A DNA stretch of 480 nt from Escherichia coli (lineage in GTDB: Bacteria > Pseudomonadota > Gammaproteobacteria > Enterobacterales > Enterobacteriaceae): NCBI RefSeq assembly GCF_003334335.1, contig NZ_QOWQ01000185.1. One strand, written 5' to 3'. The translations under genes and the position numbers were made by a program. Under the pieces are notes generated by a model. That model was not told the DNA's origin, did not search any database, and was given only the letters and a program-made list of their open reading frames with translations. Every line of letters starts with the position of its first letter. The first letter of the stretch is position 1. Positions 1 through 410 of the stretch are shown here, piece by piece.

Positions 1-395
1 CCCAGTGCCTGTACCAGACGTTCCGTGATAAGGCGGTCTGCCTTGCTGGGTGTGACTTCACCGGACGGGTGATTGTGTGCCAGCACCACAGCAGCGGCAT
101 TGTGATACAGGGCGCGTTTAATCACTTCACGGGGATGGACTTCCGTGCGGTTGATGGTGCCGGTGAAGAGGGTTTCACCGGCAATCAGCTGATTCTGGTT
201 GTTCAGATACAGCACCCGGAACTCTTCACGCTCCAGTCCCGCCATGTTCAGAATCAGCCATTCTCGTGCCGCACGGGTGGAGGTGAAGGCCACGCCGGGT
301 TCATGAAGATGGCGGTCCAGGGTTTTCAGGGCCCGTTGAATGAGGCTGCGCTCGCCGGGCGTCATCGCGCCGGGCAGAAAGGAAAGCTGTTGCAT
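1..395 (-). CDS. yeeS: RadC-like JAB/MPN-domain protein (UPF0758 family), N-terminal 131 codons; C-terminus lies beyond position 1
   Basis: Minus-strand ORF starting at ATG (plus coords 393-395) and open to the window edge. Translation: MQQLSFLPGAMTPGERSLIQRALKTLDRHLHEPGVAFTSTRAAREWLILNMAGLEREEFRVLYLNNQNQLIAGETLFTGTINRTEVHPREVIKRALYHNAAAVVLAHNHPSGEVTPSKADRLITERLVQAL(G). It contains the JAMM signature H-x-H-x7-S-x2-D (HNHPSGEVTPSKAD) typical of RadC/JAB proteins. A GGAGAG Shine-Dalgarno lies 7 nt upstream of the ATG. From memory the sequence closely resembles E. coli YeeS, but the paralogs YkfG and YfjY are very similar and I cannot tell them apart without a search, so the symbol is tentative. 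An alternative in-frame ATG at 408-410 would add MERST to the N-terminus. Confidence 0.85.
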   Translation of the reverse strand, partial: MQQLSFLPGAMTPGERSLIQRALKTLDRHLHEPGVAFTSTRAAREWLILNMAGLEREEFRVLYLNNQNQLIAGETLFTGTINRTEVHPREVIKRALYHNAAAVVLAHNHPSGEVTPSKADRLITERLVQAL

Positions 396-402
396 TGTAC
401 TT

Positions 403-408
403 CTCTCC
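403..408 (-). promoter_or_regulatory. Shine-Dalgarno / ribosome-binding site for the RadC-like CDS
   Basis: Minus-strand GGAGAG (plus-strand CTCTCC at 403-408), followed by a 7-nt spacer (AAGTACA) and then the ATG at 393-395. Sequence and spacing are canonical. Confidence 0.7.
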
Positions 409-410
409 AT

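Follow-up and report, generated by a model that had tools for sequence, protein, structure and literature searches.

Does the short RadC-like gene in this stretch of Escherichia coli DNA encode a working JAMM-type metalloenzyme, and if so, on what would it act? The window analyzed here (480 nt) had previously been read as carrying an intact JAMM/MPN+ metal-binding motif in a RadC-like protein. The gene, its family and the motif are already known from RefSeq, Pfam, NCBIfam and the literature from 2003 onward, when the JAMM paper noted the motif in RadC, then of unknown function. About 88% of E. coli genomes have a member of this protein family, as do thousands of conjugative plasmids; on its substrate there are one weak protease report and a long-standing nuclease hypothesis.

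Gene Organization

The window carries yeeS, a short gene of the RadC-like JAB/MPN+ type from a CP4-44-type E. coli integrative island, over five-sixths of its length from the 5′ end. Codons 1–131 of 158 occupy positions 1–395 on the minus strand, beginning with an ATG at 395–393 and running off the window at base 1; the product corresponds to RefSeq protein WP_001186711.1 (E. coli EC416). Upstream, on the same strand, positions 411–479 hold the last 22 codons (...YYRLRDYALQHPECSAIMRIID) and the TGA stop codon (413–411) of an antirestriction gene (WP_000849588.1), the frame of which was read from the sequence. The two genes are separated by an intergenic spacer of 15 nt (396–410, minus strand) with a Shine–Dalgarno-like GGAG at 408–405, 9 nt 5′ of the yeeS ATG. 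This spacing is equally tight in EC416 (L001), in L004 and in E. coli STEC388 (L011), and yeeS and the antirestriction gene are probably co-transcribed.

Only one public record, the E. coli EC416 chromosome, is 100% identical to the window. Its annotation lists the two genes as antirestriction protein and as yeeS, JAB domain-containing protein; the antirestriction CDS lies at L001 7585–8070, and its 3′ end maps to window position 411. The C-terminal 27 codons of yeeS fall beyond the window. In EC416, the frame stays open up to a stop codon that follows codon 158, and no frameshift interrupts it; for this record, the earlier concern that the unseen C-terminus might make the gene a pseudogene is thereby answered. 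The alignment of the full protein extends to the last residue in each of the two RadC profiles and in the RadC homologue structure 2QLC.

The JAMM Motif and the Predicted Catalytic Glutamate

The motif core, from H107 to D120, is found in the minus-strand translation at positions 36–77. Residues 107–120 (window 77..36) read HNHPSGEVTPSKAD, an exact fit to H-x-H-x7-S-x2-D, as the initial annotation had it in both coordinates and pattern. To assess conservation, we aligned 86 homologues with 41–54% identity to the query. Residues E57, F59, G79, R89, H107, H109, P110, S117, D120, D140 and H141 were invariant in all 86, and N108 was kept in 85. The HxHx7SxxD pattern was also retained in each of 89 representatives at 45–58% identity. 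Three RadC-family invariants fall outside the JAMM motif: R89 (codon 129–131, minus strand), which lies in an HPRE segment, and D140 and H141, which are encoded beyond the window (EC416 locus L001 8503–8508). Together, these three residues might mark out a substrate pocket specific to RadC or, alternatively, another metal site.

The glutamate of the motif was a point on which the initial annotation went astray. It had proposed the Glu in AGETLF (E74) or in RTEVHP (E85), and although the codon coordinates (176–174 and 143–141, respectively) were correct, E74 is Glu in 68 of the 86 homologues and E85 in only eight. The invariant glutamate is instead E57 (LEREEF; codon GAA, 225–227, minus strand). 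In the secondary structure of the model described below, strand 58–64 comes directly after helix 40–51 and has E57 at its N-terminal edge, while the His pair ends strand 102–108 and D120 opens helix 118–132. In AfJAMM, E22 is on β2, H67 and H69 on β4 and D80 on α2 (2003 JAMM paper), and a 2025 review places the Glu of the RadC-like domain at the N-terminus of β1, followed by the two His and by the Asp at the N-terminus of α2. The motif residues of YeeS thus occupy the canonical JAMM structural positions, in the sense of a match in topology rather than in distances. From its invariance and from a topology like that of AfJAMM E22 and of the reviewed RadC-like domain, we infer that E57 is the JAMM glutamate and the predicted general base. 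With this assignment, every JAMM residue (E57, H107, H109, S117 and D120) is present, as had been claimed.

The assignment of the glutamate was based on invariance and topology, rather than on a significant alignment or on geometry, because profile alignments recovered only the His-Ser-Asp segment. When the RadC-like alignment was compared by hhalign with the MPN domain of yeast Rpn11 (Rpn11 sequence exact against PDB 4ocl_B), just the HxH-S-D segment was matched, at a probability of 0.2%; the register of this low-probability match places the YeeS motif on Rpn11 H109/H111/S119/D122. When the PDB was searched with a profile, AfJAMM (1oi0) came up at no better than E 2.1, through the His-Asp segment only. 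A global alignment to Rpn11 forced for the purpose of placing the Glu was meaningless and was set aside. The Asn between the two His residues (N108) fits the 2003 JAMM paper, in which Thr or Asn replaces Ser at this position in distant JAMM relatives. That the glutamate is E57 rather than E74 or E85 matters to anyone designing mutants.

Family Membership and Fold

The RadC-like JAB identity proposed earlier was borne out by profile searches. In Pfam, the 131 residues in the window match the RadC-like JAB family (PF04002) at E 1.6e-33 and, weakly, Prok-JAB as well; PHROG 10276 is matched at E 1.8e-36. With the full protein, the NCBIfam profile for the RadC subfamily (TIGR00608) gives 149.6 bits, above its cut-off of 133.85. 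The equivalog profile for canonical RadC/YicR (NF000642) gives 159.8, below its cut-off of 180, and only positions 88–211 of 212, corresponding to the C-terminal half, are covered. As judged from these profiles, yeeS is a short island paralogue that lacks the helix-hairpin-helix (HhH) half, and not the core radC/yicR gene.

An AlphaFold2 model made from the 86 diverse homologues had a mean pLDDT of 90.4. It displays the MPN fold, shares its fold with the solved RadC structure and carries the complete E-x(n)-H-x-H-x7-S-x2-D motif. When the model was used as a Foldseek query, cytidine and DNA deaminases were also returned, with weak scores. No family in the PADLOC defence-system models was matched at E up to 0.1, and Rfam gave no match in the 6 kb around the gene.

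Distribution and Genomic Context

Of 5426 complete E. coli genomes, 4799 carry DNA that resembles the gene, at a median of three places per genome and a maximum of 13. Over 16 kb in EC416, the gene order is Ag43, a large hypothetical gene, IrmA, DUF905, DUF932, antirestriction, YeeS and YeeT (DUF987), followed by a YeeU-family antitoxin, a CbtA-family toxin, DUF5983 and DUF957. Just past the island end (L001 11253–12556), a gene for a phosphorothioated-DNA-binding restriction endonuclease persists in pieces, and an HNH endonuclease gene is intact. Both are what is left of a defence locus beside the antirestriction-bearing island, and nanS/nanM/nanC come after them.

The core module occurs three times in the cryptic elements of E. 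coli K-12, in CP4-44 (yeeS), CP4-57 (yfjY) and CP4-6 (ykfG). The order antirestriction, JAB, DUF987, YeeU-family antitoxin and CbtA-family toxin is found in EC416, in K-12 CP4-57 and CP4-6, and in STEC388. The STEC388 copy (L011 3786–4430) is the most diverged of the E. coli copies sampled, at 93% nucleotide identity; there, an extra gene annotated as “antitoxin of toxin-antitoxin stability system” lies between yeeT and the YeeU-family antitoxin gene, and an IS66 element truncates the upstream DUF932 gene. The description of these proteins as “prophage-borne” follows the K-12 names, in which CP4-6, CP4-44 and CP4-57 are cryptic prophages; in the 16 kb around the EC416 copy there are no phage structural genes.

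Homologues were also found on 2334 PLSDB plasmids, 1649 of which (71%) are typed as conjugative. On the IncL carbapenemase plasmid pOXA-48 (K. pneumoniae H53; L005 6433–7366), a JAB gene with 61% identity directly follows a DUF3085 gene, and an antirestriction gene lies about 6.6 kb beyond it. RadC often adjoins DUF3085 on broad-host-range plasmids, and a complex between the two has been predicted (2026 plasmid study). Around diverged homologues at about 52% identity, either the order DUF932-RadC-DUF987 is kept or a Toprim/DUF927 primase lies beside the gene. In one such case, on a metagenomic contig (L006 281–7065), the 52%-identical homologue comes after a MazE/PIN toxin-antitoxin pair and before a 922-aa Toprim/DUF927 primase-like gene, a mobile-element context different from that of the E. 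coli islands.

Proposed Mechanism and Substrate

The motif, its conservation and the predicted fold make it likely that YeeS is an active JAMM-type hydrolase, with both zinc binding and catalysis deduced from these features. YeeS would then be a single-domain zinc hydrolase: a Zn2+ ion, coordinated by H107, H109 and D120, would activate water for the reaction, and E57, braced by N108, would act as the general base. S117 would be the oxyanion-hole serine that helps to stabilize the tetrahedral intermediate. The enzyme and the antirestriction protein would come from one transcript, and the enzyme would serve the mobile element.

The initial annotation considered the biochemical activity of these proteins unproven. 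This no longer holds as worded for the family, since the K-12 paralogue YfjY, renamed LfgB, was reported to be a protease (Fernandez-Garcia et al. 2024), but the impure preparation and the lack of a catalytic mutant leave part of the caution standing. In that study, deletion of lfgB sensitized K-12 to H2O2, acid and heat, and the defect was complemented; MqsA bound the promoter of the lfgB operon; and purified LfgB degraded both the antitoxin MqsA and α-casein in vitro. The protein was of very low solubility, the incubation was overnight and no active-site mutant was included, and the authors stated that they could not strictly rule out an effect of contaminating proteases. RefSeq now lists yfjX as lfgA, “putative antirestriction protein”, and yfjY as lfgB, “CP4-57 prophage protease” (L003 7920–8869); these names follow the single 2024 paper, the protease assay of which had no catalytic-dead control. 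By analogy with LfgB and MqsA, our preferred reading is that YeeS cleaves a protein or peptide bond, to which we give somewhat less than even chances.

The same zinc site could also act on nucleic acids or nucleotides, YeeS being a nuclease or DNA-processing enzyme that works with the antirestriction protein on incoming or single-stranded DNA of the element. Iyer, Aravind et al. argued for a nucleic-acid role of RadC-type JAB domains, possibly that of a nuclease, and regarded the ubiquitin-tail groove as probably absent from these domains. They pointed to fusions with HhH, ArdC-N, DnaG primase and DinG helicases and to cases of displacement by a 3′–5′ exonuclease. RadC domains are fused across bacteria to HhH, ArdC-N, DnaG-primase and DinG/Rad3 helicase domains, and in the helicase fusions the RadC domain holds the position of a 3′–5′ exonuclease. 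The JAB fold itself is deaminase-like, i.e., of a nucleotide-handling type, in line with the weak Foldseek matches noted above, and a mutator phenotype has been reported for cells that overproduce YfjY. Nearby are genes of DNA entry (antirestriction and DUF932), joined by the Toprim/DUF927 primase in one diverged locus, and the RadC-specific invariants R89, D140 and H141 lie outside the protease motif. We regard action on nucleic acids or nucleotides as the main alternative, less likely than action on a protein, and the remainder of our expectation falls on some other substrate or on a non-catalytic YeeS.

Whichever bond a YeeS hydrolase would cleave, the constant company of DUF932, antirestriction, DUF987 and CbeA/CbtA genes, together with the frequency of homologues on conjugative plasmids, suggests a role in the establishment or counter-defence of the mobile element rather than in DNA repair for the host. 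A more specific and quite speculative proposal is that the RadC-like JAB enzymes of islands and plasmids are counter-defence or establishment factors that work with the adjacent antirestriction protein. The constant antirestriction/DUF932 linkage, the 71% of plasmids that are conjugative and the DUF3085-JAB pair on pOXA-48 are compatible with this. If it is true, these enzymes would act on a host immune protein or conjugate or else on incoming single-stranded DNA, and the intact site in yeeS would be the sign of an anti-defence enzyme that is very widespread among conjugative and integrative elements.

Selection and Intactness

When the window copy was compared with six further copies from E. 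coli and with the three paralogues in K-12, the ratio dN/dS (Nei–Gojobori) was 0.02–0.13, at dS values of 0.09–0.23 for the close copies and 1.2–1.5 for the paralogues. Relative to strain AMSCJX03, for example, there were 18 synonymous differences and one non-synonymous difference. These comparisons support purifying selection on the gene, both at the family level and in this lineage, and with the intact ORF they uphold the earlier view that the gene is under selection rather than decaying.

The opposite reading is that this copy is a decaying or non-catalytic remnant in a cryptic element, where the motif survives only for lack of time to lose it. In its favour, some strains have a degraded element, the first 10 codons are missing from K-12 yeeS, the Eco889 copy carries S117G in the motif, and many ORF calls in the protein database are truncated or fused. 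However, dN/dS is low although dS is substantial for close copies and paralogues alike, the catalytic residues are all invariant out to 41–54% identity, and the large database clusters, with thousands of members, consist of full-length 158-aa proteins. The dN/dS values, alongside an ORF that is intact in EC416, largely refute decay, which we consider very improbable. That the HxHx7SxxD pattern arose by chance in non-coding or other-frame sequence, for which there is nothing but its shortness, was rejected as practically inconceivable, since the pattern appeared in any of the six frames in just 58 of 20,000 shuffles of the window, the frame is open over 131 codons and RadC profiles match it at E 1e-33 to 1e-47.

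The S117G substitution (TPGKAD) was seen in one of the six sampled E. coli copies, that of Eco889 (L015 31–507), which is otherwise intact; thus, not every copy keeps all five residues. Many of the longer database ORFs fuse RadC with DUF987 (PF06174), Antirestriction (PF03230), YeeU (PF06154) or unrelated domains (among them proteins P0022, P0025, P0034, P0037–P0039 and P0041). Rather than real architectures, these fusions are probably the product of frameshifts, assembly errors or miscalled starts in individual genomes.

Comparison with Known Systems

The closest known relative is YeeS of E. coli K-12 (b2002, CP4-44), with 99% amino-acid identity to the window copy across the shared 148 residues; the genes differ at one non-synonymous and 10 synonymous sites. 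The K-12 and EC416 copies have the same downstream neighbours (yeeT, cbeA/yeeU and cbtA) and Ag43 upstream. In CP4-44, however, the IrmA-DUF905-DUF932-antirestriction block present in EC416 (L001 3253–8562) is missing, and yeeS is 10 codons shorter at its 5′ end and adjoins yeeR (L002 8309–8755). K-12-like records match bases 30–477 of the gene only. K-12 YeeS looks like a truncated version of the island gene, produced by the deletion that removed the IrmA-to-antirestriction block.

YfjY/LfgB (b2644, CP4-57) and YkfG (b0247, CP4-6) are more distant, at 73% and 82% identity, respectively, and with dS above 1 they are paralogues of the window copy. In both, the JAMM core and the equivalent of E57 are identical to those in the window copy, and their operons have the same composition of antirestriction protein, JAB protein, DUF987, type IV antitoxin and toxin. 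The degradation of MqsA and the protection against stress were reported, weakly, for YfjY rather than for the window copy.

Compared to canonical RadC/YicR (PRK00024; 2QLC from Chlorobium tepidum), YeeS lacks the N-terminal, HhH-containing half, in place of which residues 13–31 are predicted by the model to form a single helix. Canonical RadC/YicR is a single core gene, whereas yeeS is island-borne and present in multiple copies. The JAMM/MPN+ isopeptidases (AfJAMM, PfJAMM1, Rpn11, CSN5, BRCC36, AMSH/Sst2, CBASS Cap3 and BilC) share 11–20% identity with YeeS. They differ in genomic company, since a partner gene of the Ubl type is missing beside yeeS (Ubl, E1 and E2-like genes were all absent from the 16 kb around it and from the diverged loci), and in the site itself: where they have Ser or Thr between the two His residues, YeeS has Asn, and it adds the family-specific invariants R89, D140 and H141.
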